Notes: generated by a model from the sequence alone, not told the origin. Numbered from the stretch's first letter, positions 48,431 to 64,000 are shown. The stretch is 64,000 bases of DNA from Gemmatimonadales bacterium (GCA_035604455.1 DATNIM010000021.1:1730-65729), one strand, 5' to 3'. Numbers and translations are program-made.

Positions 48431-49344
48431 GAGCGATCGAACGGGTTGTGCTCGGCCAGCAGGCCGCTACGCGGGAGGTGCTGATCTGCCTCCTCGCCCG
48501 CGGCCACGCACTCCTCGAAGGTGTTCCGGGAACGGCCAAAACGCTGCTCGTTCGCGCGCTCGCGCTCACCCTGCAGGTGCGCTTCCAACGGATCCAGTTC
48601 ACGCCCGATCTCATGCCGGCAGATATCACGGGCGTCTCGCTCCTGTCCGGCACGCACGAGTTCATCTTCCGGCCGGGCCCGGTCTTCGCGGACGTCGTCC
48701 TCGCCGACGAGATCAACCGAGCCCCGGCGAAGACGCAGGCGGCGCTCCTCGAAGCCATGCAGGAACGGACCGTCACGGTCGACGGGACGGTGCATCCGCT
48801 GTCAGAGGCCTTCACGGTGTTCGCCACTCAGAACCCGATCGAGTTCGAGGGCACCTATCCTCTGCCCGAGGCCGAGCTCGACCGCTTCATGATGAAGATC
48901 GTCATCGGCTACCCGGCCGAGGCCTTGGAGCAGGCGATGCTCAGGCGCTACGTGGAAGGCTTTGAGGCTGACCGGCCGGCGACCTTCGGCATCGCTCCGG
49001 TCACAGATAGAGCCGGCCTCGAACGGTTGCGCGGGGAGGTGGAGCGAGTGCACGTCGAGCCGCAGGTGACTGCGTACATCACGGCCGTGGTTCGCGCGAC
49101 CCGCGAGACCGCCTCGTTGACCCTCGGTGCGAGCCCGCGCGCCGGCGTCGCCCTGCTCAAGGCCACTCGCGCGCAGGCGGTTTTGGAAGGTCGCGACTAC
49201 GTCATCCCCGACGACGTGAAGCAACTTGCAATTCCCGTGTTGCGGCACCGGGTTCGGCTCGCCCCGGAGCTCGAGCTGGAGGGTGTGACACCCGACGCGG
49301 CGCTGCGCACCGTGCTGGACCGCGTGGACGTTCCCACGACGTGA
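48388..49344 (+). CDS. MoxR-family AAA+ ATPase
   Basis: HALLEGVPGTAKTLLVRALA (Walker A), VVLADEINRAPAKTQAALLEAM (Walker B / sensor), TVFATQNPIEFEGTYPLPEAELDRF. GTG 48388 overlaps the upstream gene by 43 nt. The start is uncertain. Confidence 0.92.
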   Translation: MGGAAPAHDAREILGAIERVVLGQQAATREVLICLLARGHALLEGVPGTAKTLLVRALALTLQVRFQRIQFTPDLMPADITGVSLLSGTHEFIFRPGPVFADVVLADEINRAPAKTQAALLEAMQERTVTVDGTVHPLSEAFTVFATQNPIEFEGTYPLPEAELDRFMMKIVIGYPAEALEQAMLRRYVEGFEADRPATFGIAPVTDRAGLERLRGEVERVHVEPQVTAYITAVVRATRETASLTLGASPRAGVALLKATRAQAVLEGRDYVIPDDVKQLAIPVLRHRVRLAPELELEGVTPDAALRTVLDRVDVPTT

Positions 49345-50651: not shown

Positions 50652-50658
50652 CGGTGTG

Positions 50659-51804
50659 CTAGAAGTGGGTCTCGTCGGTCGGGGCGCGCGTGGGCGCAGG
50701 CGCCCGTTCCCGCGGGCGGCGCTCGAGTTTCCAGGCGCTCGTTTGCCAGTTGTCGGGGCGCTCGACGGTCCTCACCCAGGGCGGCAAGGCCAGGCCCAAG
50801 TAGACCGCGAGCGCCGCTGCATACGGTTCGTAGAGGACGCGAAGCTCGGCGAGCTCGTCGGCGAGCCCACCGTCTCGGAGCTTCATGCCGCCTTGGATGA
50901 GGCGGGTACGCAGCCGGTCCAGTTCCACATCCGGCAACCGCTCCGCGACCGGTTCAGTCGGAGGCTTGGTGAAGACCTGGGCCAGGTCGACGACGGCGTG
51001 CCGCGCCATCGCAAATGTGAGACGCGCTTGTCGCACGCAGAATCCTTCCAGCCCCACCATCACGAGGGCGCTCGTATCGAGGATCGTCACGAGTGCCGCG
51101 AGCCACGACTGGTTGTTGTGCTGCGATCGGAAATACGCGAGAGCGGGATAGGAGAGATGACTTTCGAGCACCTCTGCGGCCCACTGTTCCCACTCCCGTA
51201 GCAGGTCCGCCAGCCGCTCATGCTTGGGGTCGTCGCGATGACGCCAGAGGAGTTCCCCGGCGCTCGGCGGTGTCCCAGCGCGGGCGTCGAGCAGCGAAAT
51301 CGCTATCTCGCGCCGAGAGAAGCCCTGATAGATGACCGGCAGATAGCCGATGACGATCGCGAGAAACGCAAAGCCCGTACCGGACTCGACCACTGTCAGC
51401 GCGCGGGCCACCGCCGTTTGGGGCACGACGTCTCCCAGCCCGAGCGTGAAGAACGTCGTGCCGCTCATGTACAGGTCGGTTCCAAACCCGCGCGCCGCGC
51501 CGGGGGAGCTGAGGGCGGATCCGGCGGCCCACTGGAGGCCCCCGAAGGCTACCACGATACTGGCGGCCCAGAGACTGAGGAGCATGAGCAGCGAAAGCGG
51601 GCCGTAGAAACTGAGGAAGGCCTGTTGCCGGCCGCCTCGCAGAGTGGCGGCGATCGCGCGCCAGGGGCGCCACGAGGCGCGATAGAAAAGCCGCGTTAGG
51701 CGAAGGCGTCCGCTCGCGCGGCGCGGCAGGATGACGGTTTCGAAGGCGTCCCACAGCACCCCCCCGAGGAGCAGCAGGGCTCCAAGGCCGACGACCCATC
51801 GCAC
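50659..51804 (-). CDS. Two-TM potassium-channel-like protein with a large cytoplasmic C-terminal domain
   Basis: Pore-like TTFFTLGLGDVVP (TxGxGD) flanked by TM helices. GTG start. Confidence 0.65.
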   Translation of the reverse strand: MRWVVGLGALLLLGGVLWDAFETVILPRRASGRLRLTRLFYRASWRPWRAIAATLRGGRQQAFLSFYGPLSLLMLLSLWAASIVVAFGGLQWAAGSALSSPGAARGFGTDLYMSGTTFFTLGLGDVVPQTAVARALTVVESGTGFAFLAIVIGYLPVIYQGFSRREIAISLLDARAGTPPSAGELLWRHRDDPKHERLADLLREWEQWAAEVLESHLSYPALAYFRSQHNNQSWLAALVTILDTSALVMVGLEGFCVRQARLTFAMARHAVVDLAQVFTKPPTEPVAERLPDVELDRLRTRLIQGGMKLRDGGLADELAELRVLYEPYAAALAVYLGLALPPWVRTVERPDNWQTSAWKLERRPRERAPAPTRAPTDETHF

Positions 51805-51924
51805 AAGACTCCTCCCCGGGCGTTCGTGAGTTCCTCAGAACCTAGCGCGCCGACAAGGCCGGGGAGGCTTAGGGGGGGACGAAACCCCGGGGTCGTTCGG
51901 ATCCCGGGTAGCGAGGTCGGCTGC

Positions 51925-52149
51925 TCAGGCGCGCGCGCGCAGCCCGAGCCCGGCGCAGACCGTAATGGCGAGGTACATGAAGAAGCCGTAGACGCACGCG
52001 GGGTATCCGAAGACGGTGCCCGGAGCACCCGGGGCCGGACAGGTCTGAAGCGCTCCGCCAAAGAGCTCGTGATACGTCAACACGCCGGAGAAGACGAGCC
52101 CGAACGCGCTGATCCCGAGGATGATCCGCAACCAGCCTTTGGCGGACAT
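51925..52149 (-). CDS. Small two-TM membrane protein with a Cys-containing loop (74 aa)
   Basis: MSAKGWLRIILGISAFGLVFSGVLTYHELFGGALQTCPAPGAPGTVFGYPACVYGFFMYLAITVCAGL. AAGGAG Shine-Dalgarno 6 nt upstream of ATG 52149. Confidence 0.45.
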   Translation of the reverse strand: MSAKGWLRIILGISAFGLVFSGVLTYHELFGGALQTCPAPGAPGTVFGYPACVYGFFMYLAITVCAGLGLRARA

Positions 52150-52168
52150 GCGATCTCCTTTGGCCCCC

Positions 52169-52879
52169 TCAGGCCGGGTTCGATCCGGCCTCGCCTGGCG
52201 CCACCACTTCGAGCTCATCCTCGACCGCCACCACACCTGGCGCTCCCCAGGCAGCCGCTTCAGCGGCCGCACGATCAGCCCATGAGTGGACGGTGCCCCG
52301 CAACACGACGCGGTCGCCGCACGTCTCCACCCTCACCAGCGTCGCGTCGCGAGCCGCGAGTTCGGCCCGACGCCGCAACGCGGCTTCGACCCGGCCTCGT
52401 ACGTCTGTCGGTTGCGGGGGCGCATTTGGGCGTAGGGCGACGAGGTTCGTCACCCCGACCACGCCCACGAGCGTCGCGACCGCCTCTTCGGCGGCAAGGC
52501 GCTCAAACGGCTTTTCGACCGTTCCCTCGAGGCGCACCCACCCATCGGCGACCCGCACGACGAGCTGCGTGGCATCGATTCGCGCGTTCCAGCGGAGCGC
52601 CTGCAACGCGGCTTCAGCAAGAGCTTCGTCGTCGCGCTCGTGGTGCGCGTGCAGCCTGACGTCGATGTCGTTGACCACGCCTCGGACGCCGGCTCGCTTC
52701 GCGGCGTGCTCAGCCGCGACCTTCTGAGCGTAGGTCGGCACCACACCAGTCAGCGCGACAACGTCGTCTTTCACCGCCACCGCAATGCCGGCCGCGTCCA
52801 GACTCGGTTCCCAGTTCAGTTCATCCAGCACGTGCTGGCGCAGCGTCTCTTGATCCCTCATCATGCCACCCCTTTGCAT
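52169..52879 (-). CDS. BON-domain protein (three BON repeats, OsmY-like)
   Basis: Three repeats of the type V.V..G.V.L.G.V....... A......GV..V.N.L: VAVKDDVVALTGVV...VRGVVNDIDV, VRVADGWVRLEGTV...VVGVTNLVAL, VETCGDRVVLRGTV...VVAVEDELEV. Confidence 0.85.
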   Translation of the reverse strand: MQRGGMMRDQETLRQHVLDELNWEPSLDAAGIAVAVKDDVVALTGVVPTYAQKVAAEHAAKRAGVRGVVNDIDVRLHAHHERDDEALAEAALQALRWNARIDATQLVVRVADGWVRLEGTVEKPFERLAAEEAVATLVGVVGVTNLVALRPNAPPQPTDVRGRVEAALRRRAELAARDATLVRVETCGDRVVLRGTVHSWADRAAAEAAAWGAPGVVAVEDELEVVAPGEAGSNPA

Positions 52880-52888
52880 GGCCGGGCT

Positions 52889-53599
52889 CTAGCCCGGCGG
52901 TGCGGCGTTGCCCAATGCCATCGGGCGCGCCCCCGCGTTGGCGTCCGCGACCAAGTAGCGCTTCAACCACCCCGTGACGAGCCAATCCAGGTGCGCAAGA
53001 GCGCGGGGAGCCTCGAGCAGCGGCCCCTGTACCGCAACAACTGCAAGCTCCTGAACTCCGCCAAACTTCCCCAGGGCGGAATAGTTCGCGCTCAGTATTC
53101 GCGCATCCGGGCCGGTCACGGCGAGGAGGACGGGGGTCGCGACCTGCGCTAAGTCTCGATCCCCAAGCTCGACGCTTCCGTCGAGCGCGATCGTCGTCTT
53201 CACCTGAGGTCCGTAGAGGGGAGCCGCCAGGAGCGCGGCGCTCGCGCCGAGATGCCATCCGACGAAACCCATGGGTAGGTCTTTGTATCGGGGCGCCCTC
53301 CCAAGCCACGCGGTGACCCTGAGCAACCGGCGCACCAGCAGGGGCAGATCAGAGGCTCCACCGCCCTGGGTCATTTCGCGGTCGGCCACGAGTTCGCAGC
53401 GGAGTGTTCCAAACCGCGAGCCGTACAGCGACCGTGCGAGACCCGCGTCGACGCGAGCGGTCAGACTGCTGCCTGCCGCGTGCCCGAACACCACCAGTCC
53501 GACGGGATTGGACGGCATAAGCACTATGGCCGATAAGAGTCTTTCGCCCGCGGGAATCTGTGCCATCATTTCCACCGTTGGGCCGGGTCCGATCGCCAT
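52889..53599 (-). CDS. Alpha/beta-hydrolase-fold protein, dienelactone-hydrolase-like
   Basis: LVVFGHAAGSS..., FVGWHLGASAAL (nucleophile-elbow position), VLLAVTGPDARI. Strong AAAGGAGG Shine-Dalgarno. Confidence 0.6.
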   Translation of the reverse strand: MAIGPGPTVEMMAQIPAGERLLSAIVLMPSNPVGLVVFGHAAGSSLTARVDAGLARSLYGSRFGTLRCELVADREMTQGGGASDLPLLVRRLLRVTAWLGRAPRYKDLPMGFVGWHLGASAALLAAPLYGPQVKTTIALDGSVELGDRDLAQVATPVLLAVTGPDARILSANYSALGKFGGVQELAVVAVQGPLLEAPRALAHLDWLVTGWLKRYLVADANAGARPMALGNAAPPG

Positions 53600-53722
53600 A
53601 GCAACCTCCTTTGAGACTCAGCCTATCCCTATCGGTGTGAACGCGTTCTGAGATCGGCATGAGGGAGGTCGGAGGCGAGGTAGAGGACGCCAAGGGCGAC
53701 GTCGGCGGGGGCTTCACGGGCT

Positions 53723-53746
53723 GTTCACCGTCCCGTCAGGGTGAAC
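53723..53746 (+). promoter_or_regulatory. Inverted repeat GTTCACC-N10-GGTGAAC upstream of the CBS gene
   Basis: Seen directly. 7-bp perfect arms, about 36 nt upstream of ATG 53782, in the divergent intergenic region. Confidence 0.3.
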
Positions 53747-53781
53747 CGGGCAGGTTGATGCGGGTGCACGAGGAGGTCCCA

Positions 53782-54249
53782 ATGATGAGGATTCACGAGG
53801 TGATGACGCTCCGTCCCGTCACGGTGACCCCGCAAACCATGATCCGCGACCTCATGGGCCAGTTCGACCGTCACGAGTTCAATGCCTTCCCGGTCGTAGA
53901 CGAAGGTGGCGGCGCGCTGATGGGGATCGTGACGAAGCTCGACGTGCTGAAGGCGCTGCGCCCGCAGCCGGAGGCGGGGTTCGAGCCATCTCTGACGTTC
54001 GGTCGCGTCGAGAACATTATGCGTCATGGAGTCGTCGTAGTGGAGCCGGACGATCCTGTCATCGTAGCCGCGGACCTCATGGTCGAAACGCATCTGCGGA
54101 GCCTGCCGGTCGTGCGACGGCCGGGCGGGTCGGCTCCCCAGCTCGTGGGCATCGTGAGTCAGGGCGATCTCTTGCGCGCTTTGCGATTGGGGGCAGCGGA
54201 CCCTCAATTGGCGACGCGGCGCCAAGTGATGGCTTCGGTCGACACATGA
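53782..54249 (+). CDS. CBS-domain pair protein
   Basis: MMRIHEVMTLRPVTVTPQT...FPVVDEGGGALMGIVTKLDVL...IMRHGVVVVEPDD...LPVVRRPG...LVGIVSQGDLL. AGGAGG Shine-Dalgarno 5 nt upstream of ATG 53782. Confidence 0.85.
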   Translation: MMRIHEVMTLRPVTVTPQTMIRDLMGQFDRHEFNAFPVVDEGGGALMGIVTKLDVLKALRPQPEAGFEPSLTFGRVENIMRHGVVVVEPDDPVIVAADLMVETHLRSLPVVRRPGGSAPQLVGIVSQGDLLRALRLGAADPQLATRRQVMASVDT

Positions 54250-54908
54250 GAGACCACGAGGGAATCTTCCGGGACCGGACCGATGCCGGAGTCGACTTGG
54301 CGCGGCACTTGATGCGGCACCGCGGGCCCGGTACCCTCGTGCTGGGTATTCCGCGAGGCGGTGTGGTGGTCGCGGCGGAGATCGCACGCCAGCTCGATGC
54401 GGAGCTCGACGTCGTCGTGGCGCGAAAGCTCGGCGCGCCCATGTCAGAAGAGCTGGCCATCGGGGCGGTGAGCGCGAATGGTGGTCGTTATCTCAATGAG
54501 GACATCATCCGGGAGCTCGATGTCTCGCCTGACTATCTGGCAACGGTCACCGAGCGTGAACAGGCCGAAGCGCGCAGGCGCGAGGCGCGGTTCCGGGGGG
54601 GCCGGCCCGCCCCGCGCGTGGCGGGGCGCACGGTGATCGTGGTTGACGACGGCCTGGCCACCGGGGCCACGATGTATGCGGCCGTGCGCTCAGTACGCCA
54701 GCAATCGCCCGCCCGCCTTGTTGCGGCGGTACCGGTAGGCTCTCGCGAAGGGTGCGCCGTGTTGCGCAACGAGGTGGACGAGCTCGTGTGCCTTCTTGCG
54801 CCGGACTTCTTCGCGGCCGTAGGGAGCTTCTATCTCGACTTCCGGCCCACCGAGGACGCAGCCGTCGAGCGACTGCTCAAAGAATCCGGCACGGTCGCAC
54901 CGGCCTGA
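54246..54908 (+). CDS. Phosphoribosyltransferase-family protein (stress-cluster type)
   Basis: FRDRTDAGVDLARHL...VLGIPRGGVVVAAEIA, PRPP loop VIVVDDGLATGATM. ATGA overlap with the CBS gene stop. Confidence 0.85.
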   Translation: MRDHEGIFRDRTDAGVDLARHLMRHRGPGTLVLGIPRGGVVVAAEIARQLDAELDVVVARKLGAPMSEELAIGAVSANGGRYLNEDIIRELDVSPDYLATVTEREQAEARRREARFRGGRPAPRVAGRTVIVVDDGLATGATMYAAVRSVRQQSPARLVAAVPVGSREGCAVLRNEVDELVCLLAPDFFAAVGSFYLDFRPTEDAAVERLLKESGTVAPA

Positions 54909-54917
54909 CCTAGCCGC

Positions 54918-55856
54918 GTGACGCTCACCTTGTTCGCGGGCAGTGCGCACCCGGGGCTCGGCGCCGCGGTGGCGGCCGGTCTTGGCCAAGAGCTCGGCGC
55001 ATCGGAAATCCACGCGTTCCCCGACAGCGAACTGTCGGTGGGGCTCCGACAGAGCGTGCGCGGGCACGATGTCTACATCCTCCAGCCGACCGCGCCGCCC
55101 ACAGTTGAGCGTCACCTGGTCGAGCTTTTGCTCCTGGCGGACGCCGCCCGTCGGGCCGGCGCTGCTCGGCTCACGGCGGTAATTCCCTATTTGGGCTATG
55201 CCCGTCAGGACCGTCGGGCAACGGGCCGGGAAGCCGGCGCAGCTCGCGTGATCGCCGATCTCATTGACACCCGTGGCTTCGCTCGGCTGGTGGCGCTCCA
55301 CCTCCATTCGGTGGCGCTGGAGGGCTTCTTCGGGACGCCGGTGGAACATTTGAGCGCGGTGCCTCTTCTGGCAACGGCCCTTGCGCCGCAGCTTCCGGCG
55401 GACGGTGTCGTCGTGGCTCCCGATCTCGGCGCCGCCAAACTTGCCGAGCGCTACGCCCGCGTGCTACGCCTCCCGGTGGCGATTGTGCACAAGGAGCGGC
55501 AAGCCGGCGCCGAGGTCTCCGTGCGCGCCATTACCGGCGATGTGCGGAATCGCGTACCGATCATCGTCGACGACATGATCACGACGGGCGCCACCATAGT
55601 CGCGGCGCAAACCGCACTTGTGGCCGCGGGTTGCAAGCCCGGGCTGATCGTGGCGGCGACTCACCCGCTGCTGGTCGACGGTGCCGTGGGACGCCTGCGA
55701 ACGCTGAACCCGCGGCGCCTCATCGTCACCGACAGCGTGGCCGCGCGCGAGAACCCCTCTTCCTTCGAAGTCGTTAGCGTGGCCTCGCTCCTGGCCGAGG
55801 CCATTTCACGTCTGCATCACGAGCGCTCGCTGCAGGATCTCCTAGCGCACGAATAG
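54918..55856 (+). CDS. prs: Ribose-phosphate pyrophosphokinase
   Basis: FPDSELSV, VYILQPT, IPYLGYARQDR, HLHS, VVAPDLGAAK, IIVDDMITTGATI. Confidence 0.93.
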   Translation: MTLTLFAGSAHPGLGAAVAAGLGQELGASEIHAFPDSELSVGLRQSVRGHDVYILQPTAPPTVERHLVELLLLADAARRAGAARLTAVIPYLGYARQDRRATGREAGAARVIADLIDTRGFARLVALHLHSVALEGFFGTPVEHLSAVPLLATALAPQLPADGVVVAPDLGAAKLAERYARVLRLPVAIVHKERQAGAEVSVRAITGDVRNRVPIIVDDMITTGATIVAAQTALVAAGCKPGLIVAATHPLLVDGAVGRLRTLNPRRLIVTDSVAARENPSSFEVVSVASLLAEAISRLHHERSLQDLLAHE

Positions 55857-55860
55857 CGGA

Positions 55861-56496
55861 TCAGATACCCAGTTCGGCGACCGCGCGCATGATGTCCGTG
55901 GCGGTGACGATTCCTATGAGCTCGCCCGCTTCAAGCACGACGGCCCGGTGCACGCGCTCTTTGAGCATATAGGCGGCGGCGTCCGCGACCGTCGTGTCGG
56001 GCGAGACGGCCCGCACTCCCTGACTCATGGCCTCGGCCACCGTGTGTTCGCCGAGCACGTCCCACTCCGGCCCGGCGAGGGACTCGAAGCGCTGCGCCAC
56101 ATCGGCCCCCGCGTCTGCCCACAGATCGTTGAAGTAAGTGCTCGGCGTCTCGGCGTCGGGCTCCCACATTTCGCCAGCCGGTGACTCGAGCTCGGTTTCC
56201 CCCTCGGCGCTCTCCATGCGCTCGGTTGGGACCCCTGGGGTATCCGCTTCGAATGCCAGGATGTCGTTCGCTGAGATTGCCCCGACCACGGCGCCCGCGG
56301 ACACGACCGGCGCGCCGGTGATGTGCTGGGCGGCCAGGATCTCGACGGCGTCGCGCAGCGTAAGCGCGGGATCGAGCACCTGAACGCTGGGGGACATGAT
56401 GTCCCGCACCGTAACCGCGCTCTTGCGGGAGCCAGCGGCCCGCGGGTGCGGCGCGCGGCGAGCTGGCTTGTTGTGCTTCGTCTGCAGCCTCCTCAT
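55861..56496 (-). CDS. CBS-domain pair protein with an acidic insert
   Basis: VRDIMSPSVQVLDPALTLRDAVEIL...GAPVVSAGAVVGAISANDIL and VAEAMSQGVRAVSPDTTV...RAVVLEAGELIGIVTATDIM. GGAGGG Shine-Dalgarno upstream of ATG 56496. Confidence 0.8.
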   Translation of the reverse strand: MRRLQTKHNKPARRAPHPRAAGSRKSAVTVRDIMSPSVQVLDPALTLRDAVEILAAQHITGAPVVSAGAVVGAISANDILAFEADTPGVPTERMESAEGETELESPAGEMWEPDAETPSTYFNDLWADAGADVAQRFESLAGPEWDVLGEHTVAEAMSQGVRAVSPDTTVADAAAYMLKERVHRAVVLEAGELIGIVTATDIMRAVAELGI

Positions 56497-56922
56497 AGGG
56501 CCCTCCGAGTTGCGGTGACCAGCCTCGGCGGACAGTCTCGCGCCGGAGGGGTGAGGCCATCGTGAACGGGCGATGAGCGATTTCTCCGCGCGGCCGGTTC
56601 GCGTAAAGATGATCTCAGGTGAGTTTGGCGCGCTGTTCATCGACGGGGGGCTGTGCTAGCGAAGGCGTAAGGGCTCCGGGCAAATCAGGAAGGTGGCCCC
56701 AGTGGCCGCCAACGGGGCTTGCACGTACGAGGTTCGTACGATGGCCTCACGAGGAGTGGACGACGTCCACCCGCCCGGCGCCCTACGCCACCGCTGTTCT
56801 TTCTCCATCTCGCTCGCAAAAACGCCTGCTTGATTGATTGTTCCGTCCATCTACCTGACGGCGCGGGGACGGCGTAGCTCTGCGGCCGCCCGCCGCCCTG
56901 CCGGGCTGTCTCGCGCCGATCG

Positions 56923-57708
56923 TCAGTCCGCGAAGCGCAGCAGAGCCGCTAGCCCATCCACGCGCTTGGCAAGCACCGGATCTCGGATCAGCTCGATGGC
57001 GGCGCCTTGCCGGAGCCCTTCCTCTTGTGCTTGGCCCACGAGATCCGGCTCCGGAACCGCATCCCCCTCGCCGCGGCAATCGGTCGCCGTCAGCACGAGG
57101 CGACCCGACATGGAGCAGCGGAAGCCCGCGCCGGTCACCCCGGGAACGACCAAGAGCGTACGGACCTGGCCTCGCCCGAGCGCCCGCAGCGTCTCGCGCG
57201 CGCCATTGGTCGCCGCGCCGCGGCCCACTCCCTCTTCCATCTTGGCGACGAGGTCGGATTCGACGGCGTGCCGGTGGGCCGCGCGGGCCGCTTCCGCCGC
57301 CCCCACCAGGGCCGCCATTGTCACCTCCGGAGGACTGAGGTGCGTGACGCCGATTACGCGGTCGGCCAAAGCCGCCGGCAACACCTTGGCGAGCGCGGCC
57401 GTCGCGGGCCCCGGCCCGGCGAGGAGGATCCCCTCAGCCGGTCGCTCGCGCTCCAGTTCCACGAGCTGCGCGACGACTCCCTCGAGGTGCCGGTGCTCCT
57501 CTTCGCGGACCCGGCCGTGATACTCGCGCTCTCCCCAGCCCGGTCCGCCTTGGCGGTCGCTATGGAAACGTTTGCCATGCATTGCCGGGGACCGAAAATC
57601 GGCCACTTCCCTGACCCCACTATTCGTTACTTCGAAGAACCGCGCGTGGGCGCGATCGAGTACCACCGCGAGCACGCGTTCAAAGTCCTGCGCCACACTG
57701 GTTGTCAT
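56923..57708 (-). CDS. eRF1/Pelota-like protein (bacterial aeRF1-type, host-attachment-protein-like); no GGQ motif seen
   Basis: Three-part layout: LAVVLDRAHARFFEV...; ILLAGPGPATAALAKVLPAALADRVIGV; ATNGARETLRALGRGQVRTLLV...GAAIELI...GLAALLRF. These resemble the eRF1/Pelota central and C-terminal domains. GGAG Shine-Dalgarno. Confidence 0.65.
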   Translation of the reverse strand: MTTSVAQDFERVLAVVLDRAHARFFEVTNSGVREVADFRSPAMHGKRFHSDRQGGPGWGEREYHGRVREEEHRHLEGVVAQLVELERERPAEGILLAGPGPATAALAKVLPAALADRVIGVTHLSPPEVTMAALVGAAEAARAAHRHAVESDLVAKMEEGVGRGAATNGARETLRALGRGQVRTLLVVPGVTGAGFRCSMSGRLVLTATDCRGEGDAVPEPDLVGQAQEEGLRQGAAIELIRDPVLAKRVDGLAALLRFAD

Positions 57709-57757
57709 GGTCAGAGCTCCTCGGCGCCTGGAGTCGGCGCCGGCTTCAACATCCTCG

Positions 57758-58312
57758 CTACCCGACCGTCACATGACCCCGAGCGATGTGCACCGAGGTG
57801 GCCTGGGGGCCCTTTTGGCCGGGCTCTTCGGTGAAGCGGACCTCGGCGCCGACGTCGACTCGAGGCAACGCACCGTCCAGGACGCTGTGAGCGTCGAAGT
57901 AGACTTCATGCCCATCCTCCGCTTCCTCGATGAACCCGTAGCTGCCGAGCGGATAGTACTGGCTGACCCGGCCGCGCCGCAGCGTCTCGTGTGCCTTCAC
58001 AGCGCCGTGTTGGCGCCGGGCGTAGTCCTCCAGCCGCCGGCGTGCGGCGCTGAACGCGTCTTGGAAGGCCGTGCGAAGGTCCGCGTGCGGTTGTCGACCG
58101 ATCGCGACTGCCCCGCCGGGCAGCATGAGCTCCAGCCGGACGCGGTAACGCTCGGCGTCGCTCCGACGCCGTCGCTGCGGCGTATCGATCGTCACGACCG
58201 CCCTCACGATCCGACTATAGAAGCGTGTAAGCCGGGCCATCCGCTTGCGAAGGTCCTGTTCCAGCTCAGGAGAGAGCTCGAAGTTCAAAGCAGCAATGCG
58301 CAACGGCACCAT
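57758..58312 (-). CDS. Ribosome hibernation factor (HPF/RaiA) fused to a cold-shock domain
   Basis: HPF-like: LRIAALNFELSPELEQDLRKRMARLTRFYSRIVRAVVTID...DLRTAFQDAFSAARRRLEDY. CSD: GRVSQYYPLGSYGFIEEAEDGHEVYFDAHSVL...GAEVRFTEEPGQKGPQATSV. AAGGAG Shine-Dalgarno before ATG 58312. Confidence 0.85.
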   Translation of the reverse strand: MVPLRIAALNFELSPELEQDLRKRMARLTRFYSRIVRAVVTIDTPQRRRRSDAERYRVRLELMLPGGAVAIGRQPHADLRTAFQDAFSAARRRLEDYARRQHGAVKAHETLRRGRVSQYYPLGSYGFIEEAEDGHEVYFDAHSVLDGALPRVDVGAEVRFTEEPGQKGPQATSVHIARGHVTVG

Positions 58313-58597
58313 AGGTCGCTCCTTCAGGTCCGTCTGCAAGCTGGCTGTTCCCGGATGAAGGAGTCCTGAGGGAGCAAGGAAGGTCTAGCCGTCGTCTTAG
58401 CGTTTCAGCGCGTCGGTCGGCCTGCTCTTTGGCCTGTGGCGAGCGGCCGGGCGGCGCGGCTCGACCCGATCGACGCCCTGCGTCATGAGTGTGGCGTCTT
58501 CGACCCAAACTCACGGGTGCTTAACGCAGGAGGTGTGATCGTTGCCCGAGGAGCGAGGGTGTAGGGCAAAGGTTGCATCAAATGAGGAGAATGAGCC

Positions 58598-58852
58598 ATG
58601 AAGTACACTGCACAGGAGTTCACGGCTGCGGCGAGAGTGGCCGCGGCTCGCGCCCGCTCGCGGGCGCGGCGGCTGTTTGAACGGGCGGATGCAGCACTCA
58701 TCTACGCCGGTGATGCGGCCCGGCGGCGTCAGCGGAGACGGGCCGCGAGTATTGCGCTGAGGTTCGCAGCGCGGGCCGTGCTGGTCGCCGGAACAGCGGC
58801 CATTGGGGTTGCGGCCGCGCGCGCTCTCCGGTCCCGGAAGCCGAGCGCCTGA
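58598..58852 (+). CDS. Hypothetical small Arg/Ala-rich protein with a C-terminal TM helix
   Basis: GAGGAG Shine-Dalgarno 8 nt upstream of the ATG. Followed by a strong terminator. Confidence 0.45.
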   Translation: MKYTAQEFTAAARVAAARARSRARRLFERADAALIYAGDAARRRQRRRAASIALRFAARAVLVAGTAAIGVAAARALRSRKPSA

Positions 58853-58881
58853 TTCGGTCCAAAGCTGTGCTCCAAATTTAC

Positions 58882-58918
58882 GCGGGGGTCCGGATCACCG
58901 GACCCCCGCTCTCTTTGT
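58882..58918. terminator. Strong, probably bidirectional, intrinsic terminator
   Basis: Perfect 12-bp stem GCGGGGGTCCGG-ATCA-CCGGACCCCCGC, followed by TCTCTTTGT and preceded by AAATTTA. Lies between convergent genes. Confidence 0.8.
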
Positions 58919-58955
58919 GCCTACTGCCTGGATCAACGCCCGAGAGGCCCGTTCC

Positions 58956-59570
58956 CTAGCGCGGGTGTTCGAGTACAAAGGAAATCCCCACCGCCACGAC
59001 CCGGGGAGCGCCCGGCGCCGCCTGCCCCGGGGGCAGGATGATCGGGACCCATCTCTCGGGGCCTACGCCCACATGCCCGAGCCACTCGGCCAGCCCCATT
59101 CCCAACGCTCCGAAGCCAAGGGCGCCGTACGCCGCCTTAACGGGGGCGGACATTGCGAAAACCCCCTTCGCACTCGCGGGGTCGTTGCCGCTCGCGAGCC
59201 CCATCGCGGTGCCGAACGTTGCACCAAGGACCGCACCGACCAGGCGGTCGCGACCCGGCGTGGCGTAACGGCCGTGACTAACTGCGATTGACTCGATCGC
59301 GGGCACCGGGACCGCGATGACCCGCCACCACGCGAACGCGCGAGCGCTACCGGCGCTCGGGAGCTCGCTGACGCCGAGGCGCAGCGTATCGTCGTTAAAC
59401 GCCTCGACGTAGCCCACCACTGCAACGTCGTGGATGCCAGCCAGGACAATCCGTAGACGCTCCCCATGCCGGGGGACCTGCGCGACGCCGCGGCCCGCCG
59501 CGAGCAGGCCCAGTAACACCCCGATGCCACAGAGAACATGACCGCTCATTCGTGTCATCGCGTCCTCCAC
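58956..59570 (-). CDS. Hypothetical membrane/lipoprotein-like protein
   Basis: N-terminal hydrophobic segment and Gly-rich C-terminal hydrophobic segments. No family recognised. Confidence 0.45.
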   Translation of the reverse strand: MEDAMTRMSGHVLCGIGVLLGLLAAGRGVAQVPRHGERLRIVLAGIHDVAVVGYVEAFNDDTLRLGVSELPSAGSARAFAWWRVIAVPVPAIESIAVSHGRYATPGRDRLVGAVLGATFGTAMGLASGNDPASAKGVFAMSAPVKAAYGALGFGALGMGLAEWLGHVGVGPERWVPIILPPGQAAPGAPRVVAVGISFVLEHPR

Positions 59571-59727
59571 CCGATGAGATGCAGCATGGCAGGTGGCGGC
59601 TCACGCAAACGTGAAGCTGAGAAGAAGATTTCGAACAACGACGTGGAGACGTGCGCCCGGTCCTCGCGGGTCTTCACGTTCTGCGGGTACAGACGGAGGG
59701 TTAGCTTGTGGCAGACGCGGGATCTGA

Positions 59728-60213
59728 GTGTATGCCATGGCCAGAGTCAGTGCAGGACTGATCGGGTATCGTCGTTCGAAGGGCGTTCTCGAGGTGCTCC
59801 TCGTTCACCCGGGCGGTCCGTTTTGGAAGGCGAAGGATCTCGGGGCTTGGTCGATCCCTAAGGGGGCGCTTGATGCGGGGGAAGAGGCACTCGAGGGCGC
59901 GAAGCGGGAGTTTCGTGAGGAGACTGGTTTCACAGTCGTCGGGCCGTGTATTCCGCTCGCCTCCCTACGACAGCCAGGCGGCAAGCTTGTGCACGCCTGG
60001 GCCGTCGCGGGTGATTGGGACCCGAGCGCGCTCCGCAGCAACATGGCCTCGATCGTATGGCCCCCCCGCTCCGATCGCACGCTCGAGTTCCCGGAGGTCG
60101 ACCGCGCGGCGTGGTTTCCGATCCATGAGGCGCGGCGACGCATCGCGCCGGGGCAGGTGGGATTCTTGGATGAACTCGTCGGTCTTCTCGAACAGCACCG
60201 CGGGGCGCTGTGA
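59728..60213 (+). CDS. NUDIX hydrolase
   Basis: Nudix box GALDAGEEALEGAKREFREETGF. Alternative ATG start at 59737. Confidence 0.85.
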   Translation: MYAMARVSAGLIGYRRSKGVLEVLLVHPGGPFWKAKDLGAWSIPKGALDAGEEALEGAKREFREETGFTVVGPCIPLASLRQPGGKLVHAWAVAGDWDPSALRSNMASIVWPPRSDRTLEFPEVDRAAWFPIHEARRRIAPGQVGFLDELVGLLEQHRGAL

Positions 60214-60267
60214 GCAGCTTCTGCTGACGGTGCGCGGGCGCGCCTGGCGGACGAAAAGCCTCGTCCC

Positions 60268-61083
60268 GTGACGACCTCCCAGGGCTCCCCCCGGGTCATT
60301 GAGACGAACGCCTTGACCAGGGTCTTCGGCGAGCTTTCGGCCGTAGACCACCTCGACCTGGGCGTGGAACAGGGGGTGATTTTCGGGCTACTCGGCCCGA
60401 ACGGGGCGGGGAAGAGCACGACGATCAAGATGCTCACGACGCTCCTCCCTGCCACGTCGGGCAGTGCGCGGGTCGCGGGCTACGACATTAGTCGCGAGGC
60501 GCCTCAAGTCCGGCGTCGCATCGGCTATGTACCCCAGCTCCTGTCGGCGGACGGCGGGCTGACCGGACGGGAGAACCTCACGCTGTCGGCTCGCCTGTAC
60601 CGGGTGCCGCGTCCCGAGCGGGGCCGCCGGATCGCCGACGCACTCGCGTTCATGGATCTTGCCGACGCGGCTGATCACCTCGTCCGCACCTACTCGGGGG
60701 GAATGATTCGCCGCCTTGAGATCGCCCAGGCGATGCTGCACGAGCCCGAGATACTCTTTCTGGACGAACCGACGGTCGGGTTGGACCCCGTCGCCCGCCG
60801 CGCGGTGTGGGAGCGCCTGCGCGAGCTCAAGCGCCGGTCGCGGACGACCATTCTTCTGACTACCCACGACATGGAAGAGGCTGACATCCTCTGCGATCGC
60901 CTCGCGATCCTGCACCAGGGGAAAGTTGCGGTCATCGGGGTACCGAGCGAGCTCAAGGCGGTCGTGGGGCCGGAGGCCACCTTGGAAGATGTGTTTGTGC
61001 AGACCGTCGGAGGCGCTGTCGAGGAGGGAGGGACCTACCATGACGTCCGTCGAGTCCGTAGTACCGTCCGCCGGCTGGGGTAG
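60268..61083 (+). CDS. ABC transporter ATP-binding protein (ABC-2/DrrA-like)
   Basis: GLLGPNGAGKSTT, YSGGMIRRLEIAQAM, ILFLDEPTVGLD, TTHDMEEA. Confidence 0.92.
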   Translation: MTTSQGSPRVIETNALTRVFGELSAVDHLDLGVEQGVIFGLLGPNGAGKSTTIKMLTTLLPATSGSARVAGYDISREAPQVRRRIGYVPQLLSADGGLTGRENLTLSARLYRVPRPERGRRIADALAFMDLADAADHLVRTYSGGMIRRLEIAQAMLHEPEILFLDEPTVGLDPVARRAVWERLRELKRRSRTTILLTTHDMEEADILCDRLAILHQGKVAVIGVPSELKAVVGPEATLEDVFVQTVGGAVEEGGTYHDVRRVRSTVRRLG

Positions 61084-61864
61084 TCGCGGTACCGTCGCGT
61101 CGTTCGTTGCGCAAACGATGGCGGTGGCGGAAATGGAGGTTCGCAAGCTCGCTCGCGATCCCGCCGAGCTCGTGAGCCGCGCGGTGCAGCCCGTCCTCTG
61201 GCTGATCGTGTTCGGCCAGGTCTTCACCCGAACGCATGCAATCCCCACGGGCGAGATGAGCTACCTCGAGTTCATGGCGCCCGGCGTGCTTGCGCAGGGG
61301 GTCCTGTTCACCTCGATCTTCTACGGCATCGCGGTGATCTGGGAGCGAGACCTCGGGATCATTCACAAGCTGCTGGCGAGCCCCGCGCCCCGCGCGAGCT
61401 TGGTGCTGGGCAAGGGCCTCGCAGCCGGCGCCCGCGGCGTGCCCCAGGCCGCCATCATCTTCGTCCTCGCCGCCCTCCTCGGGCTCAGACTGGATGTCAC
61501 ACCGGGCGCATTAATCGCCGTGTTTGGATTGGTCGTCCTCGGCTCGGCGGCGTTCGCTACGTTCTCGCTCGTGGTGGCGTGTATCGTAAAGACCAGGGAG
61601 CGGTTCATGGGGATCGGGCAGTTGCTCACCATGCCGCTGTTCTTCGCAAGCAACGCGATCTACCCCCTCGAGCTCATGCCCGGGTGGCTTCGGGTCGTCG
61701 CGCGCGTCAATCCGCTGACGTACTTGGTCGATGGGTTACGGGCCTCCATGATTCACGGCGCAGTAAGCCGCTTCGGGTTGGGCGTGGATGCACTGGTTGT
61801 CCTTGTCCTCCTCAGCCTCCTCGTCGCCGTAGCGGCTCGGCTGTATCCGGGACTCGCCCGCTAG
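61040..61864 (+). CDS. ABC-2 type transporter permease
   Basis: ATG 61040 preceded by GGAGGGAGGGA. Six TM segments. 44-nt overlap with the ATPase gene. Confidence 0.85.
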   Translation: MTSVESVVPSAGWGSRGTVASFVAQTMAVAEMEVRKLARDPAELVSRAVQPVLWLIVFGQVFTRTHAIPTGEMSYLEFMAPGVLAQGVLFTSIFYGIAVIWERDLGIIHKLLASPAPRASLVLGKGLAAGARGVPQAAIIFVLAALLGLRLDVTPGALIAVFGLVVLGSAAFATFSLVVACIVKTRERFMGIGQLLTMPLFFASNAIYPLELMPGWLRVVARVNPLTYLVDGLRASMIHGAVSRFGLGVDALVVLVLLSLLVAVAARLYPGLAR

Positions 61865-61878
61865 GGCGCGAGACGAGA

Positions 61879-63495
61879 TTGACGACCGAACGGGATCCCC
61901 AAGGGTCTACCCACGCCCTTCAGGAGCTGCCTCCCCTCGTTCGTTCGCTCCTGGCACCGGCCGCCTACCCCGCGGAAGAGCGTCCGATCCGCGTCGAGCT
62001 CCTTGAGACCCATGTCTCCTGGTTGTTCTTTGCCGAGTCCCTTGTCTACAAGGTCAAGAAGCCCGTGGATTTCGGCTTCCTCGATTTCACGACGCTCGAG
62101 CGACGCCACTTGTTTTGCGAGGAAGAGCTGCGGCTGAACCGACGCCTCTCTCCGGACGTGTACCTGGCCGTGGTCCCTATCGCCGAGCGCGAAGGACGCT
62201 ATGCGGTGCAAGGCCCGGGGAGCGTCGTCGAGTACGCCGTCAAGATGCGCCGCCTCCCGGGCGACCGTTGGCTGTCGGGGCTCCTGGAGCGCGGGGACGC
62301 GAGCCTACCCCTGATGCGGCGCCTCGCGCGGCGCCTCGCCGCTTTTCACGCAGACGCGCGCGTCTCGGGTGACGTCGGGGGGGCGGCCACGGTTCGATTC
62401 AACACGACGGAGAACTTCACGCAAGTCCGCGACCAGATCGGCCTCACAGTGAGCCGTCCGGCCTTCGATCGCGTGAGGGCGTACACGGAGGCATTCCTCG
62501 ATGTTCGCGCATCGCACTTCGCGCAACGCGAGCGCGACGGGCGCATCAGAGAATGCCATGGCGACCTTCACGCCGATCAGATTTGCGTGGCAAACGGGAT
62601 CGCCTTCATCGATTGCATCGAGTTCAACGAGCGATTTCGATGGAGCGACGTCGCGGCCGATATCGCGTTTCCCGCCATGGACGTCGATTACCACGGGCGA
62701 CCGGATCTCGCAACGGAGCTCGTGCGGGAATGGGTGACGGCGACCGGGGATCGCGACGTCTGGACCGTGCTTGACTTCTACAAGTGCTACCGCGCCTTCA
62801 CGCGGGGCAAGGTGCGCGGCTTCCGACTCCTGCAGCCGGGGCACCCAGCCCCGCAGCGCGAGGCGATCCGCGAGCAGGCCGCGCGCTACTTCGACTTGGC
62901 GGCCGGGTACGCGCGGCTTCGCGGTCCGATGCTCGTCGTGATCGGCGGACTCATGGGTGCAGGGAAGAGCACCTTAGCTGCGTCGCTCGGCTCGCGGCTC
63001 GGTGCGGTCGTCCTCGCGTCTGACGTCCTGCGAAAGGAATTGGCGGGCATCAGCCCGGACGAACGTCGCCCGGACCCGTGGGGCGAGGGTCTATACCGGG
63101 ACGAGGTGAGCGCTCGGACCTATGACGAGCTCCACCGACGGGCGACCGAGCGGTTGCGGGCCGGTGACCTGGTCATTCTTGACGCGTCGTATCGCCGGGC
63201 GACCTGGCGGACCGACGCGCGCGAGGCCGCGCGAGGTGCGGGAGCGCCCTTTCTGTTCCTCGAGGCCACGTGCCCGGACGACATTGTGCGCCACCGGCTC
63301 ACGGGTCGCCGCTCGGGGCCAAGCGATGGAAGACTAGAACTTGTGAGCCGGCAGCGTCAGGAATTCGAACCGCCCTTCGAGATACCGGCCGGCGAGCGGG
63401 TTCGAATCGACACGTCAAGGGCGGTTGACGACGTCGGCATGGACGCCTCGGCCGTGGTGTACCGGTCGGGACTCGCGCAGGCGACCCCAGCCTAG
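61879..63495 (+). CDS. Bifunctional aminoglycoside-phosphotransferase-like kinase plus P-loop (AAA_33-type) kinase
   Basis: APH-like: ETHVSWLFFAESLVYKVKKP...ECHGDLHADQICV...IDCIEFNERF. C-terminus: VIGGLMGAGKSTLA (Walker A), LDASY. TTG start at 61879. The upstream part of the track ORF overlaps the permease. Confidence 0.8.
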   Translation: MTTERDPQGSTHALQELPPLVRSLLAPAAYPAEERPIRVELLETHVSWLFFAESLVYKVKKPVDFGFLDFTTLERRHLFCEEELRLNRRLSPDVYLAVVPIAEREGRYAVQGPGSVVEYAVKMRRLPGDRWLSGLLERGDASLPLMRRLARRLAAFHADARVSGDVGGAATVRFNTTENFTQVRDQIGLTVSRPAFDRVRAYTEAFLDVRASHFAQRERDGRIRECHGDLHADQICVANGIAFIDCIEFNERFRWSDVAADIAFPAMDVDYHGRPDLATELVREWVTATGDRDVWTVLDFYKCYRAFTRGKVRGFRLLQPGHPAPQREAIREQAARYFDLAAGYARLRGPMLVVIGGLMGAGKSTLAASLGSRLGAVVLASDVLRKELAGISPDERRPDPWGEGLYRDEVSARTYDELHRRATERLRAGDLVILDASYRRATWRTDAREAARGAGAPFLFLEATCPDDIVRHRLTGRRSGPSDGRLELVSRQRQEFEPPFEIPAGERVRIDTSRAVDDVGMDASAVVYRSGLAQATPA

Positions 63496-63631
63496 CCTGC
63501 TCCCGCGGTTGCGCACCTTCTGGCGGCGGTCTAGCATTTTGCTGTGCATCGGACCTCCTACCAATCCGTGAATCCCCCAGGTGTCACGGCACGGCGGAGC
63601 CATCGGGGGCTGAGGAGCCGGAGGACATTGT

Positions 63632-64000
63632 TTGTCGACCAACGTCGACTCGCCTGAGTGGCGCGATCCTCCGGCGGGCCGGGGGTCGCAGCAGCGGTTC
63701 GAACGCCTGCTCGCCGCGGGTTTGGAGATCTTCGCCGAACACCGCCTAGAGGGCGTACTCCAGCGCGTGACCGATTGGGCCCGCGTCTTAGTGGGCGCGC
63801 GGTACGCGGCGCTGGGTGTCCTGAGCCCTGATGGGGGATCCCTCTCAGCGTTCGTAACCTCAGGGCTCACACCGGCGGAGCGTGCGGCGATCGGTGCGCC
63901 GCCCACCGGCCACGGTTTACTCGGGCTCCTCATCCGCGAGCCCACACCAATCCGGATCCGAGACATCGCGGGTCACCCGTGCCGCTCCGGCTTCCCCTCC
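63632..64000 (+). CDS. GAF-domain sensor protein, N-terminal part (DevS/DosT-like GAF; runs off the window)
   Basis: Own translation from TTG 63632: LSTNVDSPEWRDPPAGRGSQQRFERLLAAGLEIFAEHRLEGVLQRVTDWARVLVGARYAALGVLSPDGGSLSAFVTSGLTPAERAAIGAPPTGHGLLGLLIREPTPIRIRDIAGHPCRSGFP. Confidence 0.75.
   Translation, partial: MSTNVDSPEWRDPPAGRGSQQRFERLLAAGLEIFAEHRLEGVLQRVTDWARVLVGARYAALGVLSPDGGSLSAFVTSGLTPAERAAIGAPPTGHGLLGLLIREPTPIRIRDIAGHPCRSGFPS

Follow-up and report, generated by a model that had tools for sequence, protein, structure and literature searches.

The DNA analysed here is a stretch of 64,000 nucleotides from a Gemmatimonadales soil bacterium (GCA_035604455.1, DATNIM010000021.1:1730-65729), referred to as the window. 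The subject of this work is the gene cluster, or island, at its end (positions 50659-64000), which leads up to and into the gene for a sensor kinase with a GAF domain. A preliminary description had taken the island for a stress or dormancy locus that mirrors the DosR regulon of Mycobacterium tuberculosis. Reading frames were picked with a codon-usage model trained on long open reading frames (ORFs) with high third-position G+C content (GC3), because the G+C content of the window is about 70%, and the island was mapped with Pfam, NCBIfam and PDB sequence searches. For the sequence past position 64000 we used a public Logan contig of 5.6 kb, which overlaps the window without mismatch at 61316-64000 and extends 2.96 kb further. 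Loci from other genomes are designated by numbers (L002 to L172). The island and its extension contain the following features:

50659-51804 (-): K+ channel-type membrane protein with an Ion_trans_2 pore (Pfam PF07885, E=6.7e-10)
51925-52149 (-): putative membrane protein of 74 amino acids (aa), 3' of the BON gene (codon-usage gene call)
52169-52879 (-): OsmY-like protein with three BON domains (Pfam PF04972, E=5.7e-37, three stretches)
52889-53599 (-): dienelactone hydrolase-like (DLH-like) alpha/beta hydrolase (PDB 2o2g, E=4e-18)
53782-54249 (+): CBS-pair protein, first gene of the CBS-PRTase-Prs operon (Pfam CBS, E=1e-27)
54246-54908 (+): stand-alone type I phosphoribosyltransferase (PRTase; Pfam PF00156, E=1.7e-19)
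54918-55856 (+): ribose-phosphate pyrophosphokinase, i.e. phosphoribosyl pyrophosphate (PRPP) synthetase, Prs (Pribosyltran_N, E=2e-37; Pribosyl_synth, E=5e-16)
55861-56409 (-): second CBS-pair protein, downstream of the Balon-type gene (Pfam CBS, E=5e-25)
56923-57708 (-): short Balon-type bacterial aeRF1 protein (matches to baeRF_family10, 2 and 3; Pfam baeRF_family10, E=1e-13)
57758-58339 (-): hibernation promoting factor (HPF) fused to a cold-shock domain (HPF-CSD; Pfam S30AE PF02482, E=5e-11; CSD, E=1e-6)
58598-58852 (+): small basic protein of 84 aa (homologue in L082)
58882-58909 (+): intrinsic-terminator-like hairpin with a perfect 12-bp GC stem and a T-rich tail
58956-59570 (-): likely envelope (membrane or secreted) protein, with a hydrophobic segment at the N-terminus and a C-terminus rich in Gly
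59728-60213 (+): NUDIX hydrolase (Pfam PF00293, E=6e-14)
60268-61083 and about 61118-61864 (+): ATPase and permease of an ABC-2 type exporter (ABC_tran, E=2e-31; ABC2_membrane, E=8e-39)
61879-63495 (+): two-domain kinase of 538 aa, Rv2004c-like (C-terminal AAA_33, E=1.6e-25)
63632-64000 (+): start of the GAF sensor kinase, which runs past the window end by about 880 bases (GAF-A match to DosT)
About 64945-65277 in extended window coordinates (L001 3630-3962): receiver-only protein of 110 aa, following the kinase

Essentially all family calls of the preliminary description, at or near these positions, proved right in Pfam, PDB or structure-model comparisons. The PRPP synthetase, the ABC-2 pair, the cold-shock domain of the HPF, the small ORF at 58598-58852 and the protein at 58956-59570 are additions to it.

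At full length, the kinase has 415 aa, with a single GAF domain (residues 37-177), a HisKA domain (PF00512) from residue 191 (E=1.6e-11) and a HATPase_c domain. The preliminary description had likened the GAF domain to those of DevS and DosT, and the top PDB matches are of just this kind, namely DosT GAF-A (2vzw, E=1.3e-39, 50% identity) and DevS GAF-A (E about 1e-33, 44% identity). In the mycobacterial sensors, the proximal heme ligand is His149 (DevS) or His147 (DosT), and a distal tyrosine (Tyr171 or Tyr169) is needed for ligand discrimination (PMC4082495). Both residues are kept in the kinase, where His125 and Tyr147 align with DevS His149 and Tyr171 at an identical spacing of 22 residues. 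Judged by its sequence, the GAF domain is of the DosT/DevS heme type GAF-A, and heme binding is predicted. The kinase domain expected past position 64000 is present, but a single GAF domain is joined to HisKA, and not to a DevS-like HisKA_3 (PF07730), for which Pfam gave no match in the kinase. The PDB relatives of the kinase core are HisKA-type kinases (DivL, KdpD and HK853-like proteins). The sensor family is large and diversified within the Gemmatimonadales.

On the 5.6-kb contig, the kinase gene is followed by the gene for the receiver-only protein, a nitroreductase gene (PF00881, E=2e-27) and, on the opposite strand, an erythromycin-esterase-like (Ere-like) gene at about 66.4 kb, which is truncated on the contig (PF05139, E=6e-63). 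A NarL/LuxR-type regulator had been expected here, and none is encoded in the 2.96 kb past position 64000. The receiver aligns with the OmpR-type regulators that lie 3' of orthologous kinases in the more distant Gemmatimonadales loci L002, L168 and L169. Compared to these, its acidic pocket is changed from EDD to AEQ, the phospho-acceptor aspartate is replaced by alanine and the DNA-binding domain is gone, while the threonine and the lysine are kept. The two closest kinases (67-68% identical) are followed by short Asp-less receivers of the same kind (L166 9166-9519 and L167 11309-11680), so that the losses (EDD to EHP or AEQ, Asp to Ala, no output domain, with Thr and Lys retained) are common to three genomes. 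An assembly artefact, a pseudogene or a decaying gene can therefore be ruled out, and alignment identifies the protein as a conserved pseudo-receiver derived from an OmpR-type regulator. An Asp-less receiver beside an apparently intact kinase is a puzzle in itself. With no cognate response regulator beside the kinase, one of the outcomes that the preliminary description had named as speaking against its reading is partly borne out.

The surroundings of the sensor were compared in eight single-GAF kinase loci (the window, L002 and L166-L171) and, as a reference, in loci from 80 species-representative genomes anchored on the Rv2004c-like gene. With one tblastn method for both sets, at least one DosR-type family was found within 10 kb of the sensor in 8/8 loci and at least two in 6/8, versus 9/80 and 4/80 for the Rv2004c-like anchor (Fisher p about 4e-7 and 1e-5, respectively), a contrast that is inflated by the use of queries from the same lineage; the eight genomes are related to each other and not independent samples. 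The families around the sensor comprise universal stress proteins (USPs), CBS proteins, PRTase, DLH, Ere, HPF-CSD, Prs, PGA_cap, archease/RtcB and the Rv2004c-like kinase, further trehalose-phosphatase, an M50-CBS protease, P-type ATPase and nitroreductase, and often a ba3-type oxidase. The sensor gene adjoins HPF-CSD in L167, and is found near Ere, PRTase, Prs and PGA_cap in L166 and near DLH and PRTase in L168. The divergent two-GAF kinase of L172 has no such neighbours. Within the Gemmatimonadales lineage, the sensor is thus linked to DosR-type families.

The first 48 kb of the window, which are ordinary housekeeping chromosome (with RuvB, PBP1A, Rho, Omp85 and sigma-54 activator proteins, among others), lack all of the island families. 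Because of this absence, and because the families recur around the same sensor in other genomes, their clustering exceeds chance. The host had been thought not to be an actinobacterium; its best relatives are Gemmatimonadales metagenome-assembled genomes (MAGs), and the Omp85 protein agrees with this.

A complete DevS/DosR architecture with regulon-type neighbours does exist outside the Actinobacteria, in a Dehalococcoidia MAG. There (L016 657-3007, minus strand), a GAF-GAF-HisKA_3-HATPase_c kinase of 563 aa, with a DosT-like GAF-A (48% identical), and a REC-GerE/LuxR regulator adjoin an Rv2004c-like gene, a USP gene and a nitroreductase gene.

The protein encoded directly upstream of the sensor, at 61879-63495, had been described as an APH-like plus P-loop kinase. 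The AAA_33 profile accounts for its C-terminal half. The N-terminal 345 aa had no match in profile or PDB sequence searches, and for this half the assignment came from the fold of an AlphaFold model (pLDDT 92, pTM 0.90), in which Foldseek related the N-domain to choline kinase, methylthioribose (MTR) kinase, capreomycin phosphotransferase and APH(3''), and the C-domain to gluconate and polynucleotide kinases. The invariant residues (K58/60/61, E83, HGD227-229, D245 and the Walker A motif 357-363) suit both active sites, and many homologues carry PF01636. The model identifies the protein as an APH/choline-kinase fold joined to a P-loop (AAA_33) kinase, a two-domain architecture that Rv2004c itself presumably shares. 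Phosphotransferase activity has been reported for Rv2004c (PMC8701281).

The PRTase gene and the divergently transcribed DLH-like gene lie side by side, as the preliminary description had it. PRTase homologues are 65-77% identical across hundreds of metagenomic proteins. Of 84 loci anchored on the PRTase, 31 have a DLH-like gene, which mostly abuts on the same strand, and 17 have an Ere-like gene immediately downstream; ten loci have in-frame, stop-free fusions (PRT-DLH, DLH-PRT or PRT-Ere). The distance between Prs and the PRTase is at most about 1 kb in L082, L084 and L085 and at most about 2.5 kb in L166, and the order CBS-PRTase-Prs is repeated in L082 and L083. Gene order and fusions identify PRTase, DLH-like and Ere-like genes as one operon or fusion module, conserved and usually accompanied by the PRPP synthetase, and the island has both PRTase partners, at 52889-53599 (DLH-like) and at about 66.4 kb (Ere-like). 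We take Rv0571c to have a DLH-like half as well. In the literature, this protein is listed as a putative PRTase (PMC5309233), and Rv2030c is reported to have both a PRTase and an erythromycin-esterase domain (PMC4410610).

The DLH-like call required the PDB search, because Pfam gave no match at E<=0.01 (the Pfam DLH family reached only E=0.056). The nucleophile elbow reads GWHLG in the window protein, GATMG in the closest Gemmatimonadales copy (L082), and GASTG in 23 of 32 hits to PRTase-linked homologues and in PDB 2o2g. The window protein has probably lost the nucleophile serine and would be an inactive, non-catalytic paralogue. The CBS-pair protein at 53782-54249 had been assigned to the Rv2626c (Hrp1) family, which did not hold: a phmmer search of the PDB retrieved 41 CBS proteins at E<=1e-3, with no Rv2626c entries among them, and the CBS proteins of the island are generic. 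The better matches include "CBS domain-containing protein" chains (9znf_4/5, 9zni_6, 9e6q_3 and 9l96_a), the names of which look like those of very large complexes, and which might be CBS hibernation factors bound to ribosomes. In two unrelated loci (L085 7615-9720 and L168 6423-10000), the PRTase family is found beside NAD synthetase (NadE), and in one of them also beside nicotinate PRTase, which hints at a link of the family to NAD metabolism. Upstream of the CBS/PRTase operon, a string ATGAGGGAG(G/A)TCG(G/A)AG... recurs (window about 53659-53700, L084 about 9667-9816). It would encode an acidic MRE(V/I)... peptide and may represent a leader peptide or an alternative start.

Burroughs and Aravind (2019, PMC6514570) described families of aeRF1 in bacteria, along with the operons that link them to HPF, and Helena-Bueno et al. 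(2024, PMC10901736) named Balon and found its genes most often beside RaiA in stress operons. The preliminary description had tied the eRF1-like protein of the island to the Rv2629 family, and a profile built from six family-10 proteins bears this out. Its top PDB matches are the Balon chains 8v9j_z (MSMEG_1130, E=1e-18) and 8v9k_z (Rv2629, E=2.7e-11), which rank above Pelota and a/eRF1 among all PDB chains. The match is limited to Balon chain residues of about 125-375. In pairwise PDB searches, the protein alone matched only aRF1 and Pelota (E about 0.01), and its matches to the NCBIfam MSMEG_1130 and Rv2629 families (E=2e-12 and 9e-10) stay below the equivalog cutoffs (47 bits versus 480, and 38 bits versus 320). 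In the alignment, the short family-10 forms start at the central domain, and homologues in L085 and L086 carry an extra 120-150 aa at the N-terminus. The window protein has no counterpart of the N-terminal domain through which Balon contacts the decoding centre (HP motif). Family 10 has a conserved, possibly catalytic glutamine (PMC6514570). The four short homologues have an RQGG (window, L082, L084) or RHGS loop (L088), and the loop of L085 and L086 reads K/RQGG.

The Balon-type gene is separated by 49 bases from the HPF-CSD gene on the same strand, and the pairing is found again in L082 and L084. For the HPF-type ribosome silencer of the preliminary description, the S30AE domain was found, together with the extra C-terminal cold-shock domain. 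PDB entries 9t0z and 9tze ("Ribosome hibernation promoting factor") match residues 10-183, including the cold-shock-like C-terminus, with E=1e-25, so that the protein resembles, along its full length, an HPF solved on the ribosome (9t0z). The HPF-CSD fusion adjoins Balon-type or GAF-kinase genes in L082, L084 and L167. By family description, it can be likened to Rv0079, an HPF/RaiA-type factor (PMC10901736). The Arg/Ala-rich small basic ORF at 58598-58852 is divergent from the HPF-CSD gene. L082 has an 88-aa gene at the corresponding place, with 51% identity over 63 aa, and the ORF appears to be a conserved but unnamed companion of the hibernation genes. As for the second CBS protein, the CBS/baeRF arrangement is repeated in L082, and L166 encodes a 56% identical homologue.

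The remaining island genes are less informative. BON genes are also found near the GAF kinase in L167 and L171, and the one in L167 has a 91-aa gene beside it, in the position of the 74-aa membrane protein, for which Pfam gave only weak VKOR and DUF2273 matches. The protein at 58956-59570 had zero matches in Pfam, NCBIfam or PADLOC and zero homologues in related loci. The NUDIX hydrolase is not conserved among related loci, and L167 has an ABC2_membrane fragment close to its GAF kinase. Scans of the island found no Rfam families and no tRNAs. Directly upstream of the island, the window encodes a MoxR-type AAA_3 ATPase and a DUF58/VWA protein (47827-50651, plus strand), a pair that we take to be typical of Bat-like aerotolerance operons. 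Elsewhere in the window, ARAGORN placed a tRNA-Arg(ACG) at 28581-28667 (minus strand), within the sigma-54 activator gene (27456-28826); this call is probably false. Two further proteins, a PglZ-output response regulator (4442-6037, plus strand) and an NYN-domain protein with a long Arg/Gly-rich low-complexity tail (30940-32643, plus strand), are unrelated to the island.

Taken together, we lean, if only by a little, towards reading the region of 50.6-64 kb and at least 3 kb beyond as a chromosomal stress/dormancy neighbourhood that is related to the actinobacterial DosRST system but rewired, and not a copy of it. Four modules may be distinguished. The first, with roles in envelope and osmotic stress, would comprise the K+ channel, the small membrane protein and the OsmY-like protein with three BON domains. 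The second, conserved module would serve hibernation and nucleotide metabolism, with the CBS-PRTase-Prs genes converging on those for HPF-CSD, the short Balon-type protein and CBS, and the degenerate DLH-like gene alongside. A variable insert (small basic protein, envelope protein, NUDIX hydrolase and ABC-2 exporter) would be the third, and the fourth would be the sensor module of the Rv2004c-like kinase, the heme-GAF kinase, the Asp-less receiver, the nitroreductase and the Ere-like gene, the latter being the other usual partner of the PRTase. From the conserved residues, the kinase would bind heme via His125 and read O2, NO or CO with the aid of Tyr147, like DosT and DevS. Falling O2 would then trigger autophosphorylation on the HisKA histidine. 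With alanine in the acceptor position, the phosphate would not pass to the adjacent receiver, and the output probably runs via a regulator encoded elsewhere or via protein-protein control involving the pseudo-receiver. On the example of experimentally characterised relatives, HPF-CSD and the short Balon-type protein would occupy and silence ribosomes, and the PRTase, Prs, DLH, Ere and NUDIX genes may remodel a nucleotide or PRPP-derived pool.

The alternative that survives best is a general stress or stationary-phase neighbourhood without common control by the GAF kinase, a real possibility, although not a likely one. The hibernation, osmotic and nucleotide genes would then answer to different regulators (for instance, the stringent response or an alternative sigma factor), and control by the two-component system would be limited to its immediate neighbours (the nitroreductase here; the ba3-type oxidase, USP and CBS genes in relatives). 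The island and the DosR regulon would look alike because both draw on a common pool of stress families. Several findings fit this alternative, weigh against a rewired DosRST relative, or do both. No route from the sensor to promoters is visible, since the adjacent pseudo-receiver cannot accept a phosphate and lacks a DNA-binding domain. The motif discovery that the preliminary description had proposed for the intergenic regions yielded no shared operator: in about 2.1 kb of island intergenic DNA, a small data set, and in cross-genome footprinting, no shared or DosR-box-like motif was found. The search compared strand-collapsed 6-8-mers with the whole window, inspected dyads visually and looked for 9-mers common to orthologous upstream regions. 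The best k-mer (p about 1e-4) was lost after correction for 1,100-2,000 tests. A dyad GTTCACC-N12-GGTGAAC upstream of the first CBS gene (53782) was considered as an operator and rejected, as no motif was significant after multiple-test correction, and strings recurring across genomes turned out to be Shine-Dalgarno-like or to come from one shared divergent intergenic region. Scans for sigma-70 promoters and terminators gave counts no better than shuffles, except for the hairpin at 58882-58909.

Gene order points in the same direction. In DATIXG01, a Gemmatimonadales MAG and the closest genome, contig 41 carries CBS-PRT-Prs and CBS-baeRF10-Cpn60-HPF-CSD, and contig 130 carries the Rv2004c-like gene, a USP gene, the GAF kinase, an OmpR regulator, a second kinase and a P-type ATPase, with RtcB, archease and PGA_cap upstream of that block. 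With the hibernation/PRTase block and the kinase block on different contigs there, the window joins modules that are separate elsewhere. L084 has the genes of the hibernation/PRTase block in scrambled order, with RtcB, archease, tandem USPs and a P-type ATPase. The island is therefore a lineage-specific juxtaposition of modules and not a conserved unit. A conserved unit around the Rv2004c-like gene, in particular, can be ruled out, as other island families are almost never nearby (71 of the 80 loci have none). A DosT-like GAF is found in 0/84 PRTase-anchored loci. Around the sensor itself, gene content and order vary widely, and the tightest conserved unit in relatives is Usp-CBS-COX2-COX1-kinase-OmpR regulator-second kinase, without hibernation genes. 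USPs, the largest DosR-regulon family, are not in the sequenced part of the island, and for CBS, NUDIX, ABC and nitroreductase, the matches go no further than the broad family. Balon genes, finally, occur in varied stress operons across phyla, whatever the sensor (PMC10901736). Against all this stand the proximity of the sensor to hibernation and PRTase-module genes in L166, L167 and L168, the strong enrichment around it (by one scoring method), and the control of these same families by DosRST in mycobacteria (PMC5309233, PMC10901736). Co-regulation of the island genes is thus suggested by gene neighbourhood and by analogy with mycobacteria.

Recent horizontal acquisition of a fragment of an actinobacterial DosR regulon is very improbable. 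The island differs in G+C content (0.66-0.69, versus 0.70-0.72 elsewhere) and has a weaker third-position GC bias (50000-64000), which is compatible with either low expression or past transfer; the GAF domain is 50% identical to that of DosT, and lateral transfer of Balon-type genes is known (PMC6514570). However, the PRTase, the kinase and the Rv2004c-like protein have their closest homologues (65-92% identity) in Gemmatimonadales and Chloroflexota and not in Actinobacteria, the kinase core and regulator type are unlike those of DevS and DosR, the diversity of the sensor family in Gemmatimonadales speaks against a recent arrival, and no integrase, tRNA or repeat boundary was found in or beside the island. 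An anti-phage defence island, suggested by the occurrence of PRTase, NUDIX, CBS, cold-shock and P-loop kinase domains in defence systems and by weak domain matches (ShosT, E=2.4e-4, and CSD_V, E=3e-8, in PADLOC; retron Se72 effector, E=2e-7, and DS11 CBS, E=3e-3, in NCBIfam, both far below cutoffs), is hardly credible, since the PADLOC components matched only as generic domains, every informative match is to ribosome hibernation, heme sensing or metabolism, and what surrounds the cluster genes in related genomes are USPs, oxidases and RtcB instead of defence genes.

A possible history of the cluster, which we put forward tentatively and do not regard as the probable one, is that a DosR-type toolkit is older than its mycobacterial form and common to Actinobacteria, Chloroflexota and Gemmatimonadota, that the heme GAF-A was transplanted onto a HisKA transmitter in Gemmatimonadales, and that in one subclade the OmpR-type partner turned into the Asp-less, output-less receiver. 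The toolkit would then consist of a DosT-type heme sensor, Balon and HPF, PRTase/DLH/Ere with Prs, the Rv2004c-like kinase, USP, CBS, RtcB and PGA_cap, and the tuberculosis dormancy regulon would be one wiring of it and not a mycobacterial invention. In the subclade, the heme kinase would have a non-canonical output, with the pseudo-receiver as an allosteric partner or connector.

The single pieces (heme-GAF kinases, Balon-HPF operons, stress neighbourhoods) are already known. Their combination in Gemmatimonadales, the transmitter swap, the conserved Asp-less receiver and the clear tie, by operons and fusions, of the PRTase, DLH-like and Ere-like domains of two DosR-regulon proteins that are still uncharacterised are new. 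Our literature search for DosR-like regulons in Gemmatimonadota or Chloroflexota returned nothing relevant, although such work may still exist. The findings matter for M. tuberculosis, because the DosR-regulon genes Rv0571c, Rv2030c and Rv2004c still lack a physiological role. The same protein families accompany a DosT-type heme sensor in unrelated soil phyla, Balon-type and HPF factors are part of the same neighbourhood, and the sensor couples to different transmitters and regulators. PRPP supply and, in some loci, the NadE and nicotinate PRTase neighbours provide comparative handles for substrate guesses, and the island offers a compact, non-pathogen system for the link between hypoxia sensing and ribosome hibernation. 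Should the cluster not be co-regulated, the finding shrinks to an ordinary stress-gene neighbourhood.

Among the closest known systems is DosS(DevS)/DosT-DosR of M. tuberculosis, with a regulon of about 50 genes. The parallel of families that the preliminary description had called a mirror stands, and is specific for several of them (GAF-A, the Balon type, PRTase/Ere/DLH and the Rv2004c-like protein), but transmitter and regulator differ, and no shared operator was found. The two systems share the heme-type GAF-A with the same proximal histidine and distal tyrosine, and families of the regulon are found near the sensor, namely Balon-type (Rv2629), HPF/RaiA (Rv0079), PRTase (Rv0571c, Rv2030c) and Ere-like (Rv2030c) proteins, together with the Rv2004c-like phosphotransferase, a nitroreductase and a CBS pair. 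Further families (tandem USPs, RtcB, PGA_cap, an M50-CBS protease and a P-type ATPase) are encoded in related loci of Gemmatimonadales (PMC5309233, PMC4410610, PMC10901736). In contrast to DevS and DosT, the Gemmatimonadales kinase has one GAF domain instead of two and HisKA (PF00512) instead of HisKA_3, and its partner is an Asp-less receiver here and an OmpR-type regulator in relatives, as opposed to the NarL/LuxR-type DosR. No Dev-box-like operator was found in the island, and USP and alpha-crystallin are not in its sequenced part. In M. tuberculosis, the genes are distributed over nine genomic blocks (PMC5309233), but here they form a physical cluster. The window Balon-type protein lacks the N-terminal domain, and the host is diderm. 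By membership, the system is thus not DosRST, for the kinase has a single GAF domain and a HisKA core, and neither a NarL-type regulator nor a Dev box was found.

The hibernation genes resemble the Balon-RaiA/HPF operons (PMC10901736, PMC6514570) in that an aeRF1-like gene lies directly beside an HPF gene, with OsmY-type BON and CBS (Hrp1-like) neighbours of the kind described in these papers, and MSMEG_1130 and Rv2629 are the best structural-sequence relatives of the window protein. The latter differs from Balon as a short family-10 form without the N-domain that binds the decoding centre, with a glutamine-containing RQGG loop and with scores far under the cutoffs of both mycobacterial NCBIfam families, and the HPF of the window carries a cold-shock domain. 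OsdK/OsdR of Streptomyces coelicolor, compared here by its description (PMC5069765), is a DevS/DevR-like system outside the mycobacteria with an overlapping stress/dormancy regulon; as described there, it is actinobacterial and keeps a DevR-type regulator, unlike the window system. The Dehalococcoidia system of L016 is similar in that genes for an Rv2004c-like kinase, a USP and a nitroreductase accompany a DosT-like GAF-A outside the Actinobacteria, but it keeps the GAF-GAF-HisKA_3 and REC-LuxR architecture, from which the window system departs in transmitter and regulator type. Because such a canonical locus of the DevS/DosR type exists, the Gemmatimonadales system looks like a rewired derivative.

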